A DNA stretch of 37,380 nt, taken from positions 1 to 37,380 of IMG/VR virus record IMGVR_UViG_3300045988_022742; one strand, given 5' to 3'. How positions within the stretch are numbered: the first letter of the stretch is position 1; every line of letters begins with the position of its first letter. Shown here piece by piece: positions 2,405 through 25,291 of this stretch. The stretch comes from a virus. The position numbers and the translations under genes are program-made. The notes under the pieces are model-generated. The model was not told where the DNA came from, did no database searches, and saw nothing but the letters and a program-made list of their open reading frames with translations.

Positions 2405-2409
2405 ATATA

Positions 2410-2427
2410 AATTATAGCACATAAAAG
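2410..2427 (-). repeat. 18-bp direct repeat aattatagcacataaaag (copy 1), carrying TGCTATAAT on the - strand
   Basis: Identical to 3277-3294. The two copies bracket the endolysin gene. Confidence 0.9.
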
Positions 2428-2454
2428 CAAAGACCGTACAGAATTATACGGTCT
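2421..2454 (-). terminator. Rho-independent terminator after the endolysin
   Basis: - strand reads AGACCGTA-TAATTCTG-TACGGTCT followed by TTGCTTTTAT. Confidence 0.7.
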
Positions 2455-2490
2455 AATATACGAAAAATAGTTGAAGGTTTTATATTTAAT

Positions 2491-3252
2491 TTATGCTACT
2501 TCAATTAATGGGTCACAATTTACCCAAATTCCACCGATTTTTGCAAGGTTCTTTTGCACATTGACTTCATCAACACGAATTCTTGTAACATAGACAACGG
2601 CATTTGTTGTATGCAATACGTTATCATTATATCCATCAGAATAGCGAACTTTGTCAACCATACGAATTGGAAACCAACCACCTAATTGTGCAAGGTATGC
2701 GCATAAATCGCCATTGATTTGTTTCAATCCTTGATTGCCAATCTTCATTTGTACGGATGTTACGTAGCTTCCTGCGTGCAAGATTTGGTCAATTGCTTCT
2801 ACAGGTTGTGGAATGCTTGGTTTAACTGCTCCTGTGTTTGCGAAACATTTAGGTCTAAACGCAGTATCAAATGTTGCATAATAAGGTAATTTAATTAAAT
2901 TGAATGCTCCACCTTTTCCACCTTGGTTTTGACCTAAGAACCATCCTTGCTTTCCGTCAATATCAGAATCAAAGATTGCGATATGTGAGTATGGAGTCCA
3001 TCCTGCTACTTCTTTAAATACCGCAATGTCTCCCGGTTGCATGATTGAGACTTCATTACAATAGTTCAAGATACCATTTGTTTTTCGATTGTTCCAAATG
3101 TCCTTAACAAAGCTACTTGTTGTGCAATGGATAGCTTGATAGCCTAAATCAATCATGTACTTTGCGAATCCGTCCCAACATTGAGCACCATAGTATCCGT
3201 CAATGTCGAAAGCTTTGCCTAATACGGCTTTTTTGAAATTTTGATAATTTAT
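2491..3252 (-). CDS. Endolysin, N-terminal CHAP peptidase plus C-terminal SH3b-like wall-binding domain (253 aa from ATA at 3252)
   Basis: The catalytic motif GAQCWD and the later SHIAIF His motif fit a CHAP domain. The Cys lies upstream of the first ATG (3156). The frame is open from 3267 with no ATG/GTG/TTG. ATA lies 8 nt after AAGGAGGA. Confidence 0.8.
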   Translation of the reverse strand: MNYQNFKKAVLGKAFDIDGYYGAQCWDGFAKYMIDLGYQAIHCTTSSFVKDIWNNRKTNGILNYCNEVSIMQPGDIAVFKEVAGWTPYSHIAIFDSDIDGKQGWFLGQNQGGKGGAFNLIKLPYYATFDTAFRPKCFANTGAVKPSIPQPVEAIDQILHAGSYVTSVQMKIGNQGLKQINGDLCAYLAQLGGWFPIRMVDKVRYSDGYNDNVLHTTNAVVYVTRIRVDEVNVQKNLAKIGGIWVNCDPLIEVA

Positions 3253-3276
3253 TAAAAAAATCCTCCTTTATGTACC

Positions 3277-3294
3277 AATTATAGCACATAAAAG
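3277..3294 (-). repeat. 18-bp direct repeat copy 2 (candidate extended -10 promoter TGCTATAAT ahead of the endolysin)
   Basis: Identical to 2410-2427. Confidence 0.9.
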
Positions 3295-3304
3295 AGGTTT
3301 TTTA

Positions 3305-3742
3305 TCACTGATATACTGAGAACATTTCTCTTAATTTATCTCTTACCATTTCTCTTTCTTCTTGAAAGTCGCTAGACGTTTTCATTTCTTCTAAGATTCC
3401 ATACATAGCACTAAGAAAAGCTTCTAACTCACGAATAGATGTTCGTTTATCAATTTCATTGTTATCTTTTCGATATTCTTTTTTTGCTTCTATGTATTTT
3501 CTAAAATGAGAATTCATTAATGCGATATTATCATCAATTTCCGTTTCTTCAATATTTGTATCATTTGTTTTTAATGCGTTTATAGCAGTTCTTCCATCAC
3601 TCATAGCCAATATTGTATCAATGTCTTTGATATTGTCTAAAGCTTGACTCATAACTCTAAAGTCTAAATCATTGTATCCTTTTTCTAGTCCTCTCATTGC
3701 TTCTGTTAAGAGGTCTAGATTCCTTTTTCTAACCTCTTGCAT
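3305..3742 (-). CDS. Hypothetical helical/acidic 145-aa protein (cargo operon gene 5)
   Basis: ORF track. SD AGGTG lies 4 nt before the ATG. Confidence 0.7.
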   Translation of the reverse strand: MQEVRKRNLDLLTEAMRGLEKGYNDLDFRVMSQALDNIKDIDTILAMSDGRTAINALKTNDTNIEETEIDDNIALMNSHFRKYIEAKKEYRKDNNEIDKRTSIRELEAFLSAMYGILEEMKTSSDFQEEREMVRDKLREMFSVYQ

Positions 3743-3749
3743 GATACAC

Positions 3750-4169
3750 CTACGCTAATTTCTTAATGATGATATTTGCATTCTGAACAGATAAATCTAA
3801 GCCACTGTTATTTCCTAATGTAATTGTGTAAGAAGCTCCACAAGGTACTTGAATCAATGTAGCTCCACTAACATTTCCATATGCACTTGCAGTAGCTACA
3901 TTATATAAAGATTCTGTTCCTCCTACTGCTTCTCCATTCTGTTCTAATTCTAAAGAAGCTACTCCTACTGTTGCGCTTGTAATATCTGCCGTATATTCTA
4001 CCTCATAGATTCCTTGTTTTGTTAACGTAAATAATCCACTTCCTACATCATGAGCAAGCCAACCTTTACATGCACATTGGCAAGATTTTGTTCTTACTCT
4101 ATCCGTTGGAAATAATACATTTTGTCCGTTTGCTACTGTCTGTACTGCCGTTGCTATACTATTAATCAT
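3750..4169 (-). CDS. BclA C-terminal-domain-like (C1q/TNF-like beta-sandwich) protein without collagen repeats
   Basis: From memory, the layout parallels the B. anthracis BclA CTD, including the C-terminal ...ANIIIKKLA versus ...ASIIIEKVA. SD is TAGGAGGAAAAG. Confidence 0.55.
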   Translation of the reverse strand: MINSIATAVQTVANGQNVLFPTDRVRTKSCQCACKGWLAHDVGSGLFTLTKQGIYEVEYTADITSATVGVASLELEQNGEAVGGTESLYNVATASAYGNVSGATLIQVPCGASYTITLGNNSGLDLSVQNANIIIKKLA

Positions 4170-4254
4170 TTTCTTTTCCTCCTATATAAAATAAATGGGT
4201 AGCCTTTCGACTACCCTATAATCCAAAGGCTATTATTGCCTAATCTCTTTCGAG

Positions 4255-4866
4255 CTAGATTTGGTTACATCCACAACCTGTCATATTGTATGCATAATAA
4301 GGTGAGCAAGTAAGATATGCAGGCTTTGGCGTTGGTTGCAATGTATTAATGATATTTGCAGATTGTGCCTGTTGACTTAATTGGAAGTTTGCAGTTAATA
4401 AATCTCGGTCTCTATCTGCTAATTTATCACGCAATTCTTGCATTGTATTTGCATTGATTAACGCTCTTGTTGCTTCGCCTTCTGAGTGAATCGCAGTGGT
4501 AATATCACACGTATTCTTGAAACTCTGTGTATTTACACCATCAATCGCTCTTTGTGTTGCACAACAACATTCTTGATTCTGTTGTCCTAGATTCTGCAAA
4601 CCTAATTGTGTTGTGTATCGGCTTTCTAAAATGTCTCTTGAGTTTTGGAAACCTTGGCTAGATACATTCTGATTTGTGTTGAATAAATCACGCTTAATGA
4701 ATTCTTGATTCATTAATGCATCACTCTGTAGGTTGCCATTGTTACCCCAATTTCCACCAAACAGTAAGAATAAAAGGATAATCCAAATCCAATATCCTCC
4801 ACCAAATTCATTGTTGTTTCTGTCTGCTAAATCGTACATTGGTTGAATACCATTCATGCTTTCCAT
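4255..4866 (-). CDS. Membrane-anchored Cys-rich coiled-coil protein (203 aa)
   Basis: Gly-flanked TM segment GGGYWIWIILLFLLFGGNWG (YjcZ-like style), a CCC motif, and a C-terminal CSPYYAYNMTGCGC. SD is AAAGGAGGAAAT. Confidence 0.7.
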   Translation of the reverse strand: MESMNGIQPMYDLADRNNNEFGGGYWIWIILLFLLFGGNWGNNGNLQSDALMNQEFIKRDLFNTNQNVSSQGFQNSRDILESRYTTQLGLQNLGQQNQECCCATQRAIDGVNTQSFKNTCDITTAIHSEGEATRALINANTMQELRDKLADRDRDLLTANFQLSQQAQSANIINTLQPTPKPAYLTCSPYYAYNMTGCGCNQI

Positions 4867-4890
4867 TTATATTTCCTCCTTTCAACGCAA

Positions 4891-5100
4891 TTAGCGTTTT
4901 AGCCCATATTGATTTGCCACGTTTTCAAACTGTTGTTTTTGTTGTGGCGTTAACTGCCCCATCATATTGTTAAGCAATACTTGGGGATTCTGCCCACTCT
5001 GCATTAATTGTTGAACTTGATTAAATGCTTGTGGATTTCTTTGTTGTAACATACCCAACAACATCTGTTGAGGGTTCATCATATTCATTAAAGGATTCAC
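4891..5100 (-). CDS. Q/N/M-rich 69-aa protein
   Basis: GTG start 7 nt after AAGGAGC. Low-complexity NPQ repeats. Confidence 0.6.
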   Translation of the reverse strand: MNPLMNMMNPQQMLLGMLQQRNPQAFNQVQQLMQSGQNPQVLLNNMMGQLTPQQKQQFENVANQYGLKR

Positions 5101-5522
5101 GCTTTAAGCTCCTTTCTAGGCGTTTCTTTTTCTACCTTTGTATTTATATTATTTCCGTCTTTTAGACCTAATATCATAGCTTCTAGCTTGTCTAAGCGTT
5201 GTTCTATGTTATCTTTCTTCGGCTCTGTTTCTTCTTGGAATCTGTATTTCTTGAAACTGCCATCTAATGACTTCATATAGAATACTGAATCATTTCTATC
5301 TAGCATAATACTAGGCAAACCATTTACCATCATATTCCTTGCTTCTTGTTCATTATTGACCCATTTTCCATTAAAATCATTTAATCCCATGTTAGGCGTG
5401 ATTTGGTTATTGATGTTAATAGGTGGAATATTAGCTAATTGTTGAATGTTTTGTAACTGCGATTCAATCATCTGCTTTTGATTCATTAAATTGTTAATTC
5501 TGTCATTGATTGGATTATACAT
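5097..5522 (-). CDS. Hypothetical 141-aa protein with a Q/N-rich coiled-coil N-terminus (cargo operon gene 1)
   Basis: The ATG at 5522 lies 6 nt after GAGGTG. The track's GTG at 5531 is inside the SD. Confidence 0.65.
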   Translation of the reverse strand: MYNPINDRINNLMNQKQMIESQLQNIQQLANIPPININNQITPNMGLNDFNGKWVNNEQEARNMMVNGLPSIMLDRNDSVFYMKSLDGSFKKYRFQEETEPKKDNIEQRLDKLEAMILGLKDGNNINTKVEKETPRKELKA

Positions 5523-5546
5523 TTCGCTCACCTCTTTACACTCCTA

Positions 5547-5601
5547 ATTATATTCATGAGCAATCTCAATTTGTTTCCACATTAATGTCAAATAAATGTC
5601 A
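5547..5601 (-). promoter_or_regulatory. Candidate promoter region of the cargo operon: tandem TTGACAT boxes (10-bp period) and a TATAAT
   Basis: RC of 5586-5591 and of 5596-5601 is TTGACA. RC of 5547-5552 is TATAAT. The spacing is not canonical for sigma-A. Confidence 0.35.
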
Positions 5602-5627
5602 AAAAAAAGAGGTCTTTCAACCTCTTA
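5600..5627 (-). terminator. Rho-independent terminator after the sigma-r4-like gene
   Basis: - strand reads AAGAGGT-TGAAAG-ACCTCTT followed by TTTTTTTT. Confidence 0.75.
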
Positions 5628-5891
5628 ATTCTTGTCTAGATACATTTCTTTTTCACTGCTTTTTCTTGGTGGTAAAATTGCGCTATATTTCTCTACTTCA
5701 TCATACTTGTTCTTAATCCTTTTAATGATTCTATTTACGCTAGAAACACTCATATTTAATCTGTCGGCTTGTTCTCTAACTGTCCATCCGTATATTCTAG
5801 TTCTTAGAATCATTTCTTCATCTTTAGTTAATAAAGCTAGATTAATAAACTCTTCTAAAATAATCTTATTCCAAGGTACTTGATTCGTCAT
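5625..5891 (-). CDS. Small sigma-70 region-4/LuxR-type HTH protein (88 aa)
   Basis: EEMILRTRIYGWTVREQADRLNMSVSSVNRIIKRIKNKY resembles a region-4 HTH. The gene overlaps the holin 3' end by 26 nt. Confidence 0.55.
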   Translation of the reverse strand: MTNQVPWNKIILEEFINLALLTKDEEMILRTRIYGWTVREQADRLNMSVSSVNRIIKRIKNKYDEVEKYSAILPPRKSSEKEMYLDKN

Positions 5892-6366
5892 TGTCTTCGT
5901 TAACGATTTTATCCGCTACTTCCAAACCTTTAGTTAATACACTAGGCACGCTATATCCACATTGCACAAGGTTCTCAATAATGCTACGCACTTCATTAAT
6001 ACATAAAGAAGCCAATACAAACCAACCTAATAATGTGGTTACATGGAAATCAATCCCTAGCATTTTTCCAATCTCAACCAAGAATGCACTGAATGTGAAC
6101 GCAACTACAATCATAATCCAATAGCCTAGCTTTTTAAGGACTCCAATCCATCCTTTATTGCTATTGATTTTGTGATTAATCGCCGACTTCATGCACCCTG
6201 TAATATAATCCACGACGTTCATAAATAAGAAGAACGCAAATAAATACCAATGCTCACCTAATACGTATGTTAATACGGCAACGGCTACACCACCAATTGC
6301 ATTCATCTTGTGTAGAAAATACATACTTCTTGTTATTTGTTTAAATCCTCCATTTTTCTTTTCTAT
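5866..6366 (-). CDS. Holin, phage_holin_4 (LL-H/TcdE-like) family (166 aa from ATA at 6366)
   Basis: Motifs VDYITG and NEVRSIIENL...GYSVP with several TM segments. The track's GTG (6375) overlaps the SD itself. ATA lies 8 nt after AAGGAG. Confidence 0.75.
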   Translation of the reverse strand: MEKKNGGFKQITRSMYFLHKMNAIGGVAVAVLTYVLGEHWYLFAFFLFMNVVDYITGCMKSAINHKINSNKGWIGVLKKLGYWIMIVVAFTFSAFLVEIGKMLGIDFHVTTLLGWFVLASLCINEVRSIIENLVQCGYSVPSVLTKGLEVADKIVNEDNDESSTLE

Positions 6367-6378
6367 TAAATTCACTCC

Positions 6379-7392
6379 TTACATGATTTTTAAATTATCA
6401 ACCTCTAATTCTAAGGTTCTATATCCACTTTTAATGACTTCAAATATATTTCTAATTCTCGCAGTCATTACTAGTCCAATATCTGCTACTATAACATCAA
6501 CTTTATCACCTAAATCAAAATCAACTTTGTATTCGTATGAATCAGTATTCAATCCGAAATTCACATTTTCTTGAATTTGACAATCTGCTAGTTTTTCAAT
6601 TCCTTTCTGAATAAGTACCTTTTTATATTCATCAAGTGTCACATCATCCCCCATACGCTCAGAACGTGCGTCTACGAACAACTTTTTGATTCGTTCATTC
6701 TTATCTATTCTAGCGTCATATTCAACGTATATACGCTCTTCTGATTGTCCTTCGCCACAAATGATTGCATAGTTCTTGTATTTACTTGAGTCAATCATAA
6801 CGTCCGGTTCTTCAATGTTTCCAAACTCTGTAGAGAATGTGACAAAGTTGTTTCCATCTGCGTTGTTCTGAGTTAAGTCACGACCACGATATAACACGAA
6901 TGTGAACGTACTCGATACATAGTCATATTCTATACGGAACGACAATTCTAACGGATATAACAACTCATAAAGCTTCTCGTCAAGGTTTGCTCCTGTTTCT
7001 TGAAAATCTACTCTATCGGTAATGGATTCATCATATCTATATCCCATTTTCCATGAGCAATACTTGTCTAATAGCTTTTTTACTACATCAACAATTTTTC
7101 CACTGCTTGAGAACGTAGGATAAATACAATCATCTGCTAGAATCTTTTCAAAGAAAGAGCCTTTTAGCAACATTTGTTTCGTGTTGTTTGAAACGGAATA
7201 ATGCGGTATTTCTACGATTCCTAGCTCTTTATCATCAGTCGAATAAATATATTTGATATTACTTGAATACTGCCCTATATCAATATAAATCTCGAAATCT
7301 CCTGTTTCATAATATCGCCGATTCCACTGCACGTTATAAGGTGCTAGATGTGTAACAATATTGAAATCTTTATCTAATCCAAAATAAGACAT
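6379..7392 (-). CDS. Tail tip/minor structural protein (ReqiPepy6 Gp37-like, Tal-position gene)
   Basis: Position after Dit. The N-terminal pattern FGLDKDF...WNRRYYETGDFEIY is typical of this family, from memory. Confidence 0.6.
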   Translation of the reverse strand: MSYFGLDKDFNIVTHLAPYNVQWNRRYYETGDFEIYIDIGQYSSNIKYIYSTDDKELGIVEIPHYSVSNNTKQMLLKGSFFEKILADDCIYPTFSSSGKIVDVVKKLLDKYCSWKMGYRYDESITDRVDFQETGANLDEKLYELLYPLELSFRIEYDYVSSTFTFVLYRGRDLTQNNADGNNFVTFSTEFGNIEEPDVMIDSSKYKNYAIICGEGQSEERIYVEYDARIDKNERIKKLFVDARSERMGDDVTLDEYKKVLIQKGIEKLADCQIQENVNFGLNTDSYEYKVDFDLGDKVDVIVADIGLVMTARIRNIFEVIKSGYRTLELEVDNLKIM

Positions 7393-7393
7393 A

Positions 7394-8266
7394 CTATAAA
7401 CCTAAATACCTTTCATTGTAGTAAACTGTGCAAGCTAGATTTGTATCTCCATTGTCTGCCGTATATCCTATGATATTCTCACCTAACTGAATCGTCATAT
7501 CGTTGAATGATGATGTTCTGTCAACTTTACCGATACAATTCACACCGTTCTTTTTGATTGATATAGGTTCAGAAACTAAATCAATTTCTAATACATCGCC
7601 ATTGTGTAGCGTATCTAATACACGAATATATTTATCCTTGTTAAATAGTTTCGGATTCGTTACCTCTCCAAACGCTTCAATAACGGCTCTGCAATATGTT
7701 TCTGTATCACCTTGATTGTCAATATAGATTTCTCTAGCGAATGTAAATGTTCCAAAGTTTACACCTGTCTCCGGTATTTCAAAGTTGAACGCTAAACCTT
7801 CACCAATTTCTGCGATATTCCTTGCAAAATCATCAAATGAAAGCAATAAAGGTTGTGTGCATAGAATCGTAAAGTTAAGCTCTAAATCTTTGTAGATGTT
7901 AACTGTAGGCAAGCTATACGCATATAAATGACCTCTACAATATTTCTTTTCTCCCATGTACTCAACTATCACATCAAATAAATGAGAATATTGGAAGAAG
8001 CGCCGTAGCTTCTCCCTTTCTTCTCTTTTTTCTTCTAGCGAACCTTTGAAGGTAGCTTTCACGCTTCTTTCTTTCGTTGGAATACGTGAACCGATTAATC
8101 TAGCACCATTTCCAAATGCATTGTCTTGAGTTGTGTATGAAGGTGCTACATAATCAAATCCATCTAAACCACTACTTGAAGGAATCCTCCATCTTTTTTG
8201 GTTGTCAATTTCAAATTCTTTACCATCATCCCTACGGACGATAACTCTTACCTTATTGATATCTAT
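7394..8266 (-). CDS. Distal tail protein Dit (phage tail family), 290 aa from ATA at 8266
   Basis: A 68-codon in-frame extension upstream of the track's GTG (8062) has no canonical start. ATA lies 7 nt after GGAGGTG and overlaps the TMP stop codon (AATAG). Confidence 0.75.
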   Translation of the reverse strand: MDINKVRVIVRRDDGKEFEIDNQKRWRIPSSSGLDGFDYVAPSYTTQDNAFGNGARLIGSRIPTKERSVKATFKGSLEEKREEREKLRRFFQYSHLFDVIVEYMGEKKYCRGHLYAYSLPTVNIYKDLELNFTILCTQPLLLSFDDFARNIAEIGEGLAFNFEIPETGVNFGTFTFAREIYIDNQGDTETYCRAVIEAFGEVTNPKLFNKDKYIRVLDTLHNGDVLEIDLVSEPISIKKNGVNCIGKVDRTSSFNDMTIQLGENIIGYTADNGDTNLACTVYYNERYLGL

Positions 8267-10842
8267 TGGACTACACCTCCATATCCATATCTTGCTTGCA
8301 TACGTAACATTCTAGCGATTTCATCCGGACTTTGTGCTTTATTGTAGAAGTTGATAGTCTGTCCATTGTTATTTGTCGTTACGCTTGGCATGATTTGAGC
8401 CATATCTTTAGCTACGGCACGAATCCACGCTTTATTTCTTTCTAAAGGTACAACGGCTTCTGCTCCATTACCTTCTAGTAAACCAATTTGCCCACGCTTC
8501 AATACACCACCACGCTCTAGTCTTGGAATCCTTCCAATGTGTACACCGGGAATCTTATTGATGATACCGATTGCACCGTTAATACCACCGATAACACCAT
8601 TTACCATTCCTTTTACACTTCCAACTAATGAACTAACTGCTCCTTCAATTCCGCCAAATACACCACTTACAAATCCTTTTAAACCGCTCCATGCATTTTG
8701 TATGCCTTGTAGAACATTTGAAATTTTATTCCCTACATTATCCATTACACCTTGAACTTTAGACCAAATGCCATTAAATACATCAGAAACCGTAGATTTG
8801 ATATTATTGAAATATTTATTGATATTATCAACAACACCTTTCACTTTGTCTCCAACTCTATTCATTGTATCTTGAATCTTACTCCAAATATTGTTTATGA
8901 TGTCCGAAACCGTCTTAAATAAATTGCTTACGAATCCAATAATAGCAGTAACTACTTCGCTAACCTTGCTCCAAATATTTTGAGCAACCGTTAATATTAC
9001 AGACCAAATATTCGCTACAATTGTAGCTACAATTTGAACAATAGGCATGATAAATCCTAGTATTGTCGCAATCGCAGTCCCAACATACGTTACAACCATA
9101 TTTATAAATGAAATGATTCCACTTACTACACTTCCAACAACTTGAAGGATAGATGTTATTACAGGAATCATGCTAACTACCGTTTGAATAATCATCTTAA
9201 TAATTGCTAGAATCGGTGGACCTACTACACTAAGAATCTTTTGAGCTTGGTTAACAACATTTTGAATTGCACTGCCAATCTTGCCTATAATTTCTTTTGC
9301 GATAGGTTCAAGTGCAACTTTCATTTCGTCAATCGCTTTTCTAACTTCATCAAAAGCAGGAGCTAACACCTCTGAAACTTGACTTGTCAATTCTGTAATT
9401 CCACTTGTATCAATCTTGCTTAATACATTTGAAATTACATCACCAACTTTAGCAAATCCTTGTTGAATACCTTGTATAGCTACTGTAATCAATCCAATGA
9501 TACCTGCAAGAATAGGAGTAATAAGTTCGCCTATTGGAGTAAATGAATCAAGAAATGTACGCCCTAAGCCACTTAAAGCGTTCTTTAAGCCACCATTTGC
9601 AATTTCTTTAACTTTATCCATTGCTCCTTCTACATCTTTATATTTATTCCCTACTGTCGTTAAGGACTGAATGAATCCGGCGTTGAAATCTTCTCCCATT
9701 GTACCGAAAGCCGTTGCCGATTTATTCAACTTTTCTTGTTCATTTGTAGTCTTTGAAATATCTTCTACAATCGCATTTACAACATCTTTCTGAGTTGCTC
9801 TTCCTTCTTGCCAAGCTTTAAAAACATCTTGCGTCTTGGTATCAAAACTATCTAAAGCTCCTTCAATAGTTCCATCAACTAACCTTGTGGTAACTTCGTT
9901 GATTGCGTCATTTACTTTATCAAGGTTATAAGCTCCACCATCTAATCCATTCTGCATTAATTGGAAGTATTCTTCTGCCGAATATCCTGCTTGCTTGAAT
10001 TTACCGGAGTATTCTGAAATGTTGTCGCCTAACTCATCTGATTTGTTTAAACCATTCTGAGCACCTGTAGCCATAAGGTCAAAAGCTTCTTTAGAACTAA
10101 TTCCGAACTGCTTCATTAATTGTTGAGCACCTCTTAATGTTTCGTTCTCGTCCATTCCGAATGTGTCTCTTAATGTCAATAAATCCTCAGTAACATCCTT
10201 TAAATCAACATCACTTATGCCTTGCATTTGTTGCTTGACACGTGCCATCATATCGGCAACATCTGAAACATCTTCACCGAAATTGTTTGACCAAACATCA
10301 CGAGCAATGTTTTTAAATTTGCTCATTTCATTGCTTGAAGCACCTGTTTGAGCTTGAAATTTAGCCATAGCGTCATCTAATTCAGTAGCTTGATTTACAC
10401 CTGTCTTAATTGCTAATGCCATTCCACCGATAGCTCCTGCTACGGCAGTAACACCAACAACACCTCCTACGCCTAATCCTGTTAAGGTTTCAGTGATTGT
10501 AGTTGCTTCCGGACTAATATTCTGAATCTTTCCTAATAGTCCATCAAATCCACCTTGAATTGACTCTAAGGCACTGTTACCCACTTGCTTAAATACATCA
10601 AATTTAGAACCTGTTTCTTGCGTTTCTGTCTGTGTATTCTTTTGCTCTTCGTTTAAATCTTTAAGTTTATCTTTGATTTTTGGTGGTGCTTTTGAACCAT
10701 CAGAACCTAGCTTGTCGATTGCTTTTGAAGTTTCTTTGATAGCATTTGTAGTTCCACTTGTGACTTCATGAACGGATTTCATTCCATTCTCTAGACCACT
10801 TGTATCAATCTTTGTATCAAACTTTAATGTTCCGTCTGATAT
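8263..10842 (-). CDS. Tape measure protein (859 aa from ATA at 10842; 839 aa if the ATG at 10782 is used)
   Basis: Size, position, TM-rich centre and IWSK repeat motifs. ATA directly follows an in-frame TGA and lies 8 nt after GGAGGTGG. The ATG at 10782 lacks an SD. Confidence 0.8.
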   Translation of the reverse strand: MSDGTLKFDTKIDTSGLENGMKSVHEVTSGTTNAIKETSKAIDKLGSDGSKAPPKIKDKLKDLNEEQKNTQTETQETGSKFDVFKQVGNSALESIQGGFDGLLGKIQNISPEATTITETLTGLGVGGVVGVTAVAGAIGGMALAIKTGVNQATELDDAMAKFQAQTGASSNEMSKFKNIARDVWSNNFGEDVSDVADMMARVKQQMQGISDVDLKDVTEDLLTLRDTFGMDENETLRGAQQLMKQFGISSKEAFDLMATGAQNGLNKSDELGDNISEYSGKFKQAGYSAEEYFQLMQNGLDGGAYNLDKVNDAINEVTTRLVDGTIEGALDSFDTKTQDVFKAWQEGRATQKDVVNAIVEDISKTTNEQEKLNKSATAFGTMGEDFNAGFIQSLTTVGNKYKDVEGAMDKVKEIANGGLKNALSGLGRTFLDSFTPIGELITPILAGIIGLITVAIQGIQQGFAKVGDVISNVLSKIDTSGITELTSQVSEVLAPAFDEVRKAIDEMKVALEPIAKEIIGKIGSAIQNVVNQAQKILSVVGPPILAIIKMIIQTVVSMIPVITSILQVVGSVVSGIISFINMVVTYVGTAIATILGFIMPIVQIVATIVANIWSVILTVAQNIWSKVSEVVTAIIGFVSNLFKTVSDIINNIWSKIQDTMNRVGDKVKGVVDNINKYFNNIKSTVSDVFNGIWSKVQGVMDNVGNKISNVLQGIQNAWSGLKGFVSGVFGGIEGAVSSLVGSVKGMVNGVIGGINGAIGIINKIPGVHIGRIPRLERGGVLKRGQIGLLEGNGAEAVVPLERNKAWIRAVAKDMAQIMPSVTTNNNGQTINFYNKAQSPDEIARMLRMQARYGYGGVVQ

Positions 10843-12310: not shown

Positions 12311-12729
12311 TAATTAAGCTCCTTTCTGTATTTAATTTGAATAGTCAACGCATATACTGCTTGATTATCCTCATTTGTATATAGATATAAACCACTTGAA
12401 ACGGAAACATCCTCGCAATATCTGTTTCCGTCTAGTTGTGGCAATTCTCCGTTTAAATTCTTTTCATCAATCCAATTTTCTAATTCTTCTAGAAAAACAT
12501 TGTTATCTTGTCTTTCTGATTCAATTTGTGTATTCCTACGTGCTAGAAACGTGTAGTATTCTGTACGCATTTGAGAGCCATCAATGTATGTATCTACAAT
12601 TGCATTAGGTTCTTTATACAATGCATAAGAGATAGCTTGTTGTGCTAAAACATCCGTTTCAATACGTTCATCTATCTGTATATTTCCATATCCATATAGC
12701 CATTGAATCAACGCTTTTGATACTGTCAT
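12310..12729 (-). CDS. Tail completion/terminator-position protein
   Basis: ORF track. SD is TAGGAGGTAGTGA. Assigned by synteny. Confidence 0.55.
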   Translation of the reverse strand: MTVSKALIQWLYGYGNIQIDERIETDVLAQQAISYALYKEPNAIVDTYIDGSQMRTEYYTFLARRNTQIESERQDNNVFLEELENWIDEKNLNGELPQLDGNRYCEDVSVSSGLYLYTNEDNQAVYALTIQIKYRKELN

Positions 12730-13082
12730 TCACTACCTCCTATCATTTGTTGTGCTTTCTTTAAGATTGCTTCTGTTCCACCATTTCGCATAGCTTTTTT
12801 AAACCAATGGTCTGTTTTACCACCAACGAAATGAGCACCCTCTTTGTTGTAATACCAACGTCTAGCATAAGGTGCACTTGGTCCACCTTGCTTTACTAAT
12901 CCACTACCGATTTGTGTTAATCGTGTAGCCGAGTTAATCAATGCTCCTGTATCTCTAGGCGTATAGGGGGACATAAGCCTAATGACTTCAGAATCAATCA
13001 TCTGTTGAACTCGTCCACGTTCTTCAAGTCCTCTTGATTGTTTGATTTTGGGGATTGATTCAACATCAAGTTTGACTTTCAT
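12726..13082 (-). CDS. HK97 gp10-family head-tail protein (start ATG 13082, or ATA 13088)
   Basis: The motif SPYTPRDTGALINS is typical of the gp10 family. The long track N-terminus overlaps the previous gene. Confidence 0.6.
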   Translation of the reverse strand: MKVKLDVESIPKIKQSRGLEERGRVQQMIDSEVIRLMSPYTPRDTGALINSATRLTQIGSGLVKQGGPSAPYARRWYYNKEGAHFVGGKTDHWFKKAMRNGGTEAILKKAQQMIGGSE

Positions 13083-17296: not shown

Positions 17297-18175
17297 CTAA
17301 TAGATTTCTGAGTCAAGTTCTATTTCTACTACTCCACTAAGTGAAAAAACTCCTGTCTTATTGGTATCAGTTGTTATTTCTATATGCGTGTTTCCTATAT
17401 CTCTATATGCGTTAATACCTAATACTTTTTCATCTGCCGAATCTGATAATATAAGTTTATTTGCATCACCATCTGTTGATATTTTAGCAGTTGGATTAGT
17501 TCGCATACATAAATATGGAATATTGAACTTAACTTGTTGTCCTATTTGTCCAACGGTTTCTGCACCTACATTTGCTTGATAATAAAAATAACGACACTTC
17601 ATCAATTCTTCCATATAGTTCGGAGCTACAAAAGGAGTTGCGATTGAGCCTTGTTCTAGTTTTGCCCATTCGATAGTTACTGATGTGCTAGCTTCTATAA
17701 ACATATTAAATTCTGATAAGTTGCTTAGCGTAACAGAATATATTCCTGCCGAAGTGATAGTCACTCTGTTGGTAGGATTTGTGAGATATGCTTTTCCATT
17801 GATGTTTGATACTTTAACAGATAAAGTAAAAACACCTTCTAGTTCTTTTTCAAATTTTTGTGATACCCATGAACCACTATTACCGGTAGATTGAATCATT
17901 AACCCATTATCTGATACTGATACCTTAGCACTCGAGACTCGCCATCTATCTACTGTATATTCAAAGCCACCACTAGTATAGCTTTCTTTTCCTTTCTGAT
18001 TAATTTTAAAATCCGGATTAATCAATAAATTCGGATTACTGAATTTATCTGCCATGTACATTGTAACATCTTCCATACTTGCTTTTTTTAGTCCATTTCC
18101 ATCATGAACTGCAATAATATTTGTATCTTTTAAAGCACTTGCTTTTGTTAAATCTGTGAATTGTTTTCCTGCTAT
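17297..18175 (-). CDS. Receptor-binding/tail fibre protein (292 aa from ATA at 18175)
   Basis: Motifs NLLINPDFKINQKG, DRW and WAKLEQGSIATPF...CRYFY are typical of Firmicute phage fibres. ATA lies 6 nt after AAAGGAGGT. The track's GTG (18199) has no SD. Confidence 0.7.
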   Translation of the reverse strand: MAGKQFTDLTKASALKDTNIIAVHDGNGLKKASMEDVTMYMADKFSNPNLLINPDFKINQKGKESYTSGGFEYTVDRWRVSSAKVSVSDNGLMIQSTGNSGSWVSQKFEKELEGVFTLSVKVSNINGKAYLTNPTNRVTITSAGIYSVTLSNLSEFNMFIEASTSVTIEWAKLEQGSIATPFVAPNYMEELMKCRYFYYQANVGAETVGQIGQQVKFNIPYLCMRTNPTAKISTDGDANKLILSDSADEKVLGINAYRDIGNTHIEITTDTNKTGVFSLSGVVEIELDSEIY

Positions 18176-18188
18176 TAGATTACCTCCT

Positions 18189-18959
18189 TTATTTAACACA
18201 ATACTTCCAATCTGCTAAGATTGTGTTTTCGTTCTCATCTACTACTTGTGTACTAGCGTCTACTAGCAATGGAGTGTAGAAATGATTGTTTAACATCATG
18301 AATTCTAGTTCTGTAATTCTATTTGCAAGTTTACCTGCCGTATCTCCATCTAGAATATCTTTAATTGTTGCGAACCATTCATTCCAAGCATTTCGATTGT
18401 TTTGCATTGCTTCTTCGTTTAGTTCTTTTGTTTCTTTAATTAATTCTTGAACTTGAGTAAATAAGTCCATTGATGTAACGCCTTGAATTGCTCCACGTAC
18501 TACGCCACATCTATTTGAATCAAGCCTTGTATCTGTAATATCTGAACCTTTTACCTCACTTGCGTTGCCTGCTACTGTTACAGTAGCTAACACTAAATCA
18601 TAAACAGAATCACTACGTTGAATTCCGTTGCTAATCTCATCAACAACTAAAGTGATGTTTCTATATGCGTCATTATCATTCAATCTAAGAATAATATTGT
18701 AGTTCTTTGTGTTACTTGATTTCTCTACTGTGATAGTTTCATCATCTTGTTGCCAATAGAACGCTCCATTGATATTCGCTCGTCCTGCTTTCACAATTAG
18801 TGTTAAGCCTTGAGCCTTCTCAACTCTTAAATGGTCTGAGCTAGAATCATCTAAGAACACGCCATTTGTAAAGTAGCTTGAGAATAATCTCCTAAAAGCG
18901 TCATATAATACTAATCTATCGCCATTTCTTGAGACGAATGGAAAATATGTAGTTGCTAT
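18189..18959 (-). CDS. Tail fibre/structural protein, XkdV-like N-terminal type (256 aa from ATA at 18959)
   Basis: The 33-codon in-frame extension FPFVSRNGDRLVLYDAFRRLFSSYFTNGVF matches the conserved N-terminus of this family (F.S..GDR.Y.a.df..yf..fi.nGVF). It has no canonical start. ATA overlaps the portal TAG. Confidence 0.7.
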   Translation of the reverse strand: MATTYFPFVSRNGDRLVLYDAFRRLFSSYFTNGVFLDDSSSDHLRVEKAQGLTLIVKAGRANINGAFYWQQDDETITVEKSSNTKNYNIILRLNDNDAYRNITLVVDEISNGIQRSDSVYDLVLATVTVAGNASEVKGSDITDTRLDSNRCGVVRGAIQGVTSMDLFTQVQELIKETKELNEEAMQNNRNAWNEWFATIKDILDGDTAGKLANRITELEFMMLNNHFYTPLLVDASTQVVDENENTILADWKYCVK

Positions 18960-25215: not shown

Positions 25216-25291
25216 TGGTTGCAGGAGAAGGAATTGCACCGTTCGACCTCTAGCTAATAAGACTAGTGAGCTACTACTGCTCTATCCTGCT
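25216..25291 (-). tRNA. tRNA-like gene, anticodon UAU (decodes AUA), with initiator-tRNA-like acceptor and D-arm features. The T-stem is non-canonical.
   Basis: Hand-folded cloverleaf: AGCAGGA-UA-GAGC-AGUAGUA-GCUC-A-CUAGU-CUUAUUA-GCUAG-AGGUC-GAA(C)GG-UGCAAUU-CCUUC-UCCUGCA-A-CCA. The CCA end is encoded. Deviations: A1xA72 mismatch, no GG in the D-loop, U37, one bulged C in the T-stem. Confidence 0.55.

Follow-up and report, generated by a model that had tools for sequence, protein, structure and literature searches.

A six-gene cassette was analysed in a 37,380-nucleotide (nt) stretch of viral DNA (IMG/VR record IMGVR_UViG_3300045988_022742, positions 1 to 37,380; hereafter the window), which is a phage genome with nearly all of its coding on the - strand. 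The cassette lies between the holin and endolysin genes and consists of a gene for a small helix-turn-helix (HTH) protein followed by five tightly packed open reading frames (ORFs), termed A to E (Table 1). The first-pass annotation, made from the sequence alone, had described a cargo set with an HTH gene, a terminator and TTGACAT boxes ahead of the five genes, and all of these were found in place on the - strand, as was the extended -10 element TGTGCTATAAT that it had placed before the endolysin gene (3278-3288). The tail module that follows the tape measure gene comprises only Dit and a 337-amino-acid (aa) Tal. A near-identity DNA search with the window against GenBank phages returned no match, nor did an Rfam scan of the cassette region.

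Table 1. Features of the cassette and its surroundings in the window, in the order of transcription
Feature	Position	Strand	Details
Tape measure gene	8263-10782	-	
Dit gene	7394-8062	-	
Sipho_Gp37-type tail protein gene	6379-7392	-	
Holin ORF	5866-6375	-	GTG 6375; Phage_holin_4_1 2.2e-32, TIGR01593 8.3e-21; upstream boundary of the cassette
HTH gene	5625-5891	-	88 aa; sigma-region-4-like; first gene of the conserved set; 26-nt overlap with holin 3' end
Intrinsic terminator after HTH gene	5607-5626 (5599-5626 with T8)	-	8-bp stem; -13.5 kcal/mol, z -2.9
Two TTGACAT boxes, 11 nt apart	5585-5602	-	Repeat family D3; putative binding sites of the HTH protein
TATAAT, -10 of putative cassette promoter	5547-5552	-	Read from sequence; no -35 at 16-18 nt
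ORF A	5097-5531	-	Likely start ATG 5522 (as in called homologues), 141 aa
ORF B	4891-5100	-	69 aa; start overlaps stop of A (GTGA)
ORF C	4255-4866	-	203 aa; core of the cassette
Hairpin between C and D	4197-4216	-	8-bp stem, 5 GC pairs, T-rich tail
ORF D	3750-4169	-	139 aa; predicted free-standing BclA-C/C1q (TNF-like jelly-roll) head domain
ORF E	3305-3742	-	145 aa; acidic, helical; isoelectric point 4.8
Hairpin with T-run closing the cassette	3262-3297	-	16-bp stem; -24.6 kcal/mol, z -7.8; kept in relatives
CHAP endolysin gene	2491-3252	-	CHAP 1.3e-5, PHROG endolysin 1e-14; downstream boundary of the cassette

Conservation was assessed in 137 fetched loci, a synteny sample biased towards relatives of the window. 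The HTH gene was present in 116 of these, A in 131, B in 124, C in 135, D in 122 and E in 103, and the gene order was always the same. A close relative of the window phage is integrated beside Holdemanella genes and a sister lineage was found in Holdemanella and Solobacterium genomes; homologues of C occur in phages of Bacteroides and Negativicutes as well, and the hosts span monoderm, diderm and wall-less cells, with the proviso that host assignments from metagenome bins can be wrong. The family of C comprises at least 5,259 homologue clusters, none of which carries a Pfam family or a name; beside other partner genes, members of it are also found in crAss-like phages, in an isolated phage of Bacteroides uniformis and in viruses assigned to Methanomassiliicoccales. 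Some lineages have acquired a gene of approximately 70 aa after C or a ferritin-like gene of approximately 197 aa after D, and some carry an unrelated Cys-rich protein of approximately 120 aa in place of D, or a DUF7841 protein in place of E. No relation was detected by hhalign between D and the Cys-rich proteins that follow C in distant lineages, or between E and DUF7841.

Approximately 30 close relatives were found through the holin, and three of these have lost the cassette, each at a different junction. The deletion in L166 joins the N-terminus of the HTH protein to the C-terminus of E at GAAGAAATG, that in L155 joins the start of the HTH gene into D at CAAGTACCTTG, the same repeat as family D11 in the window, and in L173 only scraps of A and E are left between holin and endolysin. 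The deletions run between short repeats of 9-11 nt (microhomology), and remnants of HTH::E, HTH::D, A::D and A::C fusions were recovered from several metagenomes (P0430, P0173, P0063-P0065, P0184). Three independent deletions in sister genomes show the cassette to be dispensable, as its loss does not destroy the phage genome. In distant holin relatives a 333-aa protein is encoded immediately after the holin. The proposal that the set is a cargo unit and not lysis machinery held up, since in deletion variants and distant holin relatives the holin adjoins the endolysin; on this comparison it is to be regarded as cargo, an essential part of neither lysis nor the particle.

Mean within-lineage identity was 0.97-0.98 for C and D, 0.94 for Tal, 0.91 for the holin and 0.81 for the endolysin, and by this measure the cassette is under purifying selection despite its dispensability. 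The same identities led to the rejection of D as a fast-evolving receptor binder that tracks host range. More generally, a tail fibre or receptor-binding protein would be essential for infectivity and would diversify with host range, which agrees neither with the deletions, nor with the high identity of C and D, nor with a position that is not fixed to the tail module. The best explanation of these sequences is that the cassette is an autonomous, dispensable accessory operon of a Holdemanella prophage lineage, drawn from a very large uncharacterised gut-phage family.

The product of the HTH gene matched HTH_23 above the cut-off of that family (3.3e-6, Pfam), Sigma70_r4_2 just below it (2.3e-5; 24.4 bits against a cut-off of 25.7), Sigma70_r4 (3e-3) and the PHROG sigma-factor families (2e-5). 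The match to PRK06930, 'positive control sigma-like factor' (5.7e-6), involved C-terminal model positions only, and the NCBIfam sigma models likewise aligned solely at their C-terminal positions (110-160 of 165; 103-159 of 170), with scores far below the cut-offs. Homologues of the protein are 66-112 aa long. As judged from these alignments, the protein is a free region-4-like domain that lacks region 2, and it is ruled out as a sigma factor because region 4 is all that is present. The analogy with PaLoc and UviA that had been drawn initially loses its basis with this result.

All of the regulatory elements considered here are sequence predictions. Downstream of the HTH gene, nearly all lineages have a hairpin with a T-run and then 35-140 nt up to A, so the predicted layout noted initially, with a region-4 HTH gene at the head and a terminator and promoter-like region of its own, is kept across distant phage lineages. 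Terminator-like sites were enriched on the scanned stretch (8 found against 1.9 expected), and the tandem TTGACAT boxes were unique in the window (1 match against 0.04 expected). Although the boxes are present as the first-pass annotation had described them, a role as the -35 element of the cassette promoter was rejected because they lie 33 nt upstream of the only good -10, and they look like activator sites instead. The TATAAT is kept in all close relatives and takes the form CATATAAT in the sister lineage; a consensus promoter scan reported no full promoter at this position. The Holdemanella sister lineage has three GAGTATT boxes with 11-nt spacing in the same place as the TTGACAT boxes, and a TATAAT-type -10 follows each set. 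Since the direct-repeat boxes change as the regulator changes and their spacing equals one helical turn, we infer that the HTH protein binds them and predict that it controls a promoter insulated from upstream read-through. The overlap of the HTH gene with the end of the holin gene implies that the protein should be made late, and A-E would then form a delayed-late unit. This coupling to a late gene weakens the suggestion of lysogenic conversion. Lysis-coupled release is a possible mode of action. A Q-like antiterminator was also considered for the HTH protein and was judged unlikely, as the terminator precedes the promoter-like region. The hairpin between C and D is possibly a partial terminator or attenuator.

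Protein D matched the Pfam family BclA_C (PF18573) over residues 3-139 (2.8e-10; 40.6 bits against a cut-off of 38), and PF18573 is precomputed on most close homologues of D. No match was obtained when the single sequence was searched against the PDB, whereas a profile of the D family matched 9H38 (F-BclA-CTD) with an E-value of 5.7e-7 and the BclA entries 2Z5W, 2R6Q, 3TWI and 1WCK with values of 0.026-0.14. In Bacillus thuringiensis, F-BclA forms the tip fibrillum of the endospore appendages, and entry 9H38 is a crystal structure of its C-terminal domain, which is TNF-like and trimeric (PMC12357932). All 112 close homologues of D are stand-alone proteins of 130-146 aa (typically approximately 138), and GXY repeats were found neither in D nor in any other cassette protein. 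The initial reading of D as BclA-C/C1q-like was borne out by the score above the PF18573 cut-off and the family profile match to 9H38, and on these matches D is the head domain alone. A literature search on BclA_C in phages gave nothing relevant.

This kinship of D was one of the reasons for the earlier ideas that the locus modifies the spore surface or exosporium, or that it is a toxin or bacteriocin locus in the manner of PaLoc (tcdR/tcdE) or uviA/uviB-bcn, with a small (group-5) sigma factor and export through the holin. The composition of A, C and some E homologues, rich in Q, N, Y and Cys, recalls spore-coat proteins, and one weak YppG-like match was obtained; the holin falls in TIGR01593, 'toxin secretion/phage lysis holin', and a small sigma-related regulator gene lies together with it beside cargo genes, as in PaLoc and uviAB. 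Against this, Holdemanella biformis is listed as endospore-negative (PMC6428956, Table 2), and homologues of C are found in phages of Negativicutes and of Bacteroides, including crAss-like phages, the family reaching phages of phyla that do not sporulate. The 88-aa regulator, having region 4 only, is not of the TcdR/UviA type, the holin belongs to the phage's own lysis genes and has an endolysin as its partner, and no toxin or bacteriocin domain was found in the Pfam, NCBIfam and PHROG scans. As with BclA and F-BclA (1WCK, 9H38), secretion signals are missing from the cassette proteins, the producing cell would be one that is bound to lyse, and Cys-rich segments occur beside the head-domain protein. 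However, D is without the collagen (GXY) stalk, the exosporium leader and the ENA-type Cys-rich N-terminal connector; the part of the stalk would fall to a separate alpha-helical protein, C, which has a hydrophobic anchor; and the cassette is borne and regulated by a phage in a non-sporulating host. Neither Ena DUF3992 nor F-ENA DUF4183 was listed in Pfam scans of A-E at E<=1. Taken together, these points make both of the earlier ideas very improbable.

The remaining proteins, A, B, C and E, matched nothing in Pfam, NCBIfam and PHROG other than PHROGs of unknown function (phrog_16490 in the case of C), and profile searches of the PDB with A, C and E returned coiled-coil noise only. The AlphaFold2 (AF2) model of A, with a predicted local distance difference test (pLDDT) score of 82.7 and a core above 95, shows a Q/N-rich helix at the N-terminus, ahead of a small beta-alpha-beta-beta-beta domain, and a second helix at the C-terminus; this model had no match with an E-value below 0.1 in a Foldseek search of the PDB, matched solely uncharacterised gut-virome proteins in BFVD, and A has 188 representative homologues, all short and stand-alone. 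B consists of 39% Q+N and 13% Met with repeated NPQ helix caps, and a natural A-B fusion exists (P0193). C has a Gly-flanked hydrophobic helix, long helices and 7 Cys, and its alignments show an invariant CCC triad, the motifs KNTCDI, ANFQLSQQAQ and PxPAYxTCSPY, and a GCGC tail. E has no Pfam or PDB relative and carries a conserved C-terminal DSDFxEE motif. A hydrophobic targeting segment is present in C only, and neither a signal peptide nor a lipobox was found in the sequences of A, B, D and E. The crAss-like and Bacteroides homologues of C (L138 cr116_1, 2407-3303; L139 C3_41T2LP, 4989-5906 and 7357-7758; L140) retain the hydrophobic helix, the CCC triad and the Cys-rich tail and carry annotations such as 'spike protein/glycoprotein' or 'outer capsid protein/viral fiber'. 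The ferritin-like protein of approximately 197 aa lies between D and E in many lineages (L131, 11350-11943; L003, 4604-5197; L004, 72-776), and over helices A-B its profile matched archaeal and bacterial ferritins with an E-value of 5e-4. The presence of this gene and the invariant Cys clusters in C are, taken together, a hint of metal handling.

On the basis of these features, the cassette is tentatively read as encoding a late, self-regulated accessory complex, with a membrane-anchored, Cys-rich helical stalk and a C1q-like head, that is assembled in the cytoplasm and exposed by lysis; this is the reading we lean towards, at well short of an even chance. The region-4-like HTH protein would be made with the late genes, in the window through its coupling to the holin gene, and would bind the direct-repeat boxes one helical turn apart, upstream of a promoter with a -10 and without a -35, to switch on A-E as a delayed-late unit insulated from read-through. 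C would form the stalk and D a trimeric head of the C1q/BclA-C type as the ligand-binding end, while A would act as a coiled-coil oligomerisation adaptor, B, linked to A by the natural fusion, as a helical, Met- and Gln-rich holdase of the hydrophobic segment of C, and E as an acidic helical partner. Because none but C has a targeting signal, assembly would take place in the cytoplasm of a cell about to burst, and the complex would be exposed only once the holin and endolysin open the cell, much as lysis of the mother cell exposes exosporium and endospore-appendage proteins. Several points weigh against this model. For A, B, C and E, homology points to no function; the structure that AF2 predicts for C is of low confidence (pLDDT 48), and the topology of C in the membrane is ambiguous under the positive-inside rule, the protein being acidic on both sides of its hydrophobic helix. 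The HTH protein could be an activator or a repressor, and hidden Markov models (HMMs) of A, B, D and E gave no matches on the crAss and archaeal-virus loci. Lastly, in phages of the L131 type the scaffold and major capsid genes are not separated from the cassette by a terminator, an arrangement that suits a role in particle assembly at least equally well.

The position of the cassette differs between phages. It occupies the slot between holin and endolysin in the window and approximately 30 close relatives, that between the tail fibre genes and the holin-endolysin pair in the sister lineage (L005), and that after the endolysin in L004 and in Butyrivibrio phage Ceridwen; it follows the holin in L118 and the holin-lysin in crAss cr116_1, and locations after the integrase or among early genes were also seen. 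In at least 5 of 28 lineages the cassette lies between the minor capsid (minor head) protein gene and the scaffold and major capsid genes. This last slot brings in the main rival of the accessory-complex reading, namely an optional virion appendage: C and D would make up a fibre or decoration on the head or tail that is not essential, with a helical stalk and a C1q-like knob that binds a gut ligand such as mucin glycans, and A, B and E would be its assembly chaperones. The cassette is always co-directional within late structural operons, in L131 no terminator precedes the scaffold gene, and a stalk with a jelly-roll knob is the classic plan of a viral fibre. Secretion signals are not expected in proteins assembled onto particles in the cytoplasm, annotators of crAss phages have labelled homologues of C 'viral fiber' or 'spike', and small acidic, helical, coiled-coil proteins resemble fibre chaperones. 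T4 gp57A and lambda Tfa are comparable fibre-assembly chaperones. However, a protein that docks onto a particle should co-vary with the particle, whereas the cassette is found in phages with unrelated heads and tails and in early or integrase-proximal slots; the Gly-flanked hydrophobic helix of C resembles a membrane anchor, a dedicated HTH gene and terminator are unusual for structural genes, and the cassette is dispensable. A literature search on the carrier phages and their virion proteomes gave nothing relevant, and the C. perfringens phages with proteomes were not among the matches of C. The virion fibre or tail-tip alternative attached to the first-pass annotation was thus excluded for an essential component; an optional component stands as a rival, and we regard it as rather unlikely, if still a serious contender.

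In L131 itself, a strong terminator follows the HTH gene (9120-9146) and the stretch at 12365-12777, from the cassette to the scaffold and major capsid genes, has none; the HTH-controlled promoter may drive the major head genes there too.

The proximity to lysis genes in several independent lineages (the window, L005, L004, Ceridwen, L118 and crAss cr116_1) is also compatible with a membrane-acting accessory of the end of infection, in which C and its partners tune holin triggering or lysis timing, or block the entry of DNA from superinfecting phages. All hosts of the family (monoderm, diderm and wall-less) have the membrane as their one shared envelope layer, such a function would be dispensable, as are lysis regulators and exclusion genes, and the outline of C, with an N-terminal hydrophobic helix, two long helical segments and conserved Cys, is like that of the i-spanin Rz of two-component spanins, the genes of which, like that of C, often adjoin holin and endolysin genes. 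The absence of a lipoprotein partner (o-spanin) and the Gram-positive host Holdemanella nevertheless argue against a spanin, C is also found far from lysis genes, its invariant CCC triad and Pro/Cys-rich tail are absent from spanins, and no sequence similarity to them was detected. The partner holins come from unrelated families (holin_4_1, r1t, holin_1), which makes a specific antiholin unlikely; the head-module and early-region slots do not fit, a C1q-like head has no obvious role at the membrane, and PADLOC returned no match for A-E. A membrane-acting function of this kind is accordingly considered unlikely.

The PADLOC scan, which also covered two accessory genes and gave weak HTH-type matches for the regulator only, bears equally on an intracellular defence, anti-defence or host-takeover module, for instance one that sequesters a host factor at the membrane. 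Defence and anti-defence islands share with the cassette its accessory, mobile and dispensable nature, a regulator of its own and variability between related phages; moreover, the gene for C adjoins a PolyVal metallopeptidase gene in Bacteroides phage C3_41T2LP, where a DUF7841 partner is also adjacent, and type I restriction-modification genes follow the cassette in L107. Apart from the PADLOC result, however, no enzymatic or nucleic-acid-binding domain was found in A-E, expression is predicted to be late and not early, and a structural, Cys-rich, coiled-coil composition is untypical of such systems, so that this possibility is rated lower still than a membrane-acting accessory.

A more specific form of exposure by lysis was also considered, in which the cassette would encode a phage-made analogue of the exosporium nap or of endospore appendages: a Cys-cross-linkable stalk with a C1q head, assembled in the cytoplasm under its own late regulator and released by lysis, which would coat membrane remnants or virions and mediate aggregation or adherence to a gut ligand such as mucin glycans. 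We hold this to be improbable, to about the same degree as a membrane-acting accessory; if true, it would explain why the cassette is shared among gut viruses of Bacillota, Bacteroidota and archaea whatever the envelope of the host.

Among known systems, the cassette is closest in its genomic behaviour to the morons of HK97 and lambda-like phages. It is inserted between functionally linked late genes, with predicted terminators at its bounds and within it (5607-5626, 4197-4216 and 3262-3297), a predicted promoter marked by the -10 at 5547-5552 and the boxes upstream, presence or absence among close relatives, and sites that differ between phages. It differs from morons in being six genes long, with its own transcription factor and as a unit kept across phage groups that span phyla, and in the coupling of its regulator to late genes, which suggests expression in the lytic cycle rather than in the prophage. 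In PBSX (xepA-xhlA-xhlB-xlyA), extra non-enzymatic genes, for a beta-sandwich protein and a membrane/coiled-coil protein, are likewise found inside the lysis region of a Gram-positive phage; however, no homology to XepA or XhlA appeared in the Pfam scans, and a regulator of its own and mobility between genome positions set the cassette apart. On present matches, D alone among A-E fits a known family, and as a domain only, and the unit appears moron-like in a generic sense. For a self-regulated cassette of six genes that crosses phyla and centres on an unnamed protein family, no described counterpart was found in the literature, and C itself has no literature; the unit is rated as a new kind of system.

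The abundance of C, the crossing of host phyla, the retained regulatory layout and the purifying selection on a dispensable unit are together the mark of an accessory function linked to life in the gut and not to a single host. Knowledge of the function of the cassette would annotate thousands of 'hypothetical' phage genes and could bring to light a new mode of interaction of phages, or of the cells that they lyse, with the gut environment. Experimental handles are provided by the natural deletion variants in a cultivable host genus, by a simple candidate operator and by a small head domain suited to ligand screening.

In the hairpin that closes the cassette, the extended -10 TGTGCTATAAT falls in the 5' arm and the loop, and the Shine-Dalgarno sequence of the endolysin in the 3' arm. 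As a predicted terminator, this structure would hide the ribosome site on read-through transcripts, and transcripts initiated inside it would expose the site. No ATG, GTG or TTG start is available at the N-terminus of the endolysin, the catalytic N-terminus of the CHAP domain lying upstream of the first ATG (3156), and translation probably starts at the non-canonical ATA at 3252. In both lysis genes an in-frame ATA (3252; 6366) stands 8-9 nt after a strong Shine-Dalgarno sequence (AGGAGG, 3262-3267; AAGGAG, 6375-6380), with no ATG, GTG or TTG at these positions, so that both seem to use a non-canonical start. The ATA arrangement of the endolysin is kept in approximately 20 relatives, in which the preceding T-run varies from 5 to 8 nt, and one relative has a TTG immediately upstream. 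An exact 18-nt repeat, AATTATAGCACATAAAAG on the + strand, which corresponds to the TGTGCTATAAT promoter, flanks the endolysin gene at 2410-2427 and 3277-3294; the copy at 2410-2427, past the endolysin terminator (2431-2454), may drive small downstream genes. The endolysin of the window lineage is highly modular, with ORFs of 221-551 aa and the low mean identity given above, beside a nearly invariant cassette (L009-L032, L145-L173).

Elsewhere in the window, an Rfam tRNA match (48 bits, E 2e-7) was obtained at 25219-25291 on the - strand, while ARAGORN reported none in the whole window. At 17297-18199 on the - strand, in the head module and between two minor head protein genes, lies a gene for a 300-aa protein whose C-terminus is of the tail-fibre type (phrog_4492, 5.6e-24); this gene occupies the same slot as the cassette in L131-type phages.

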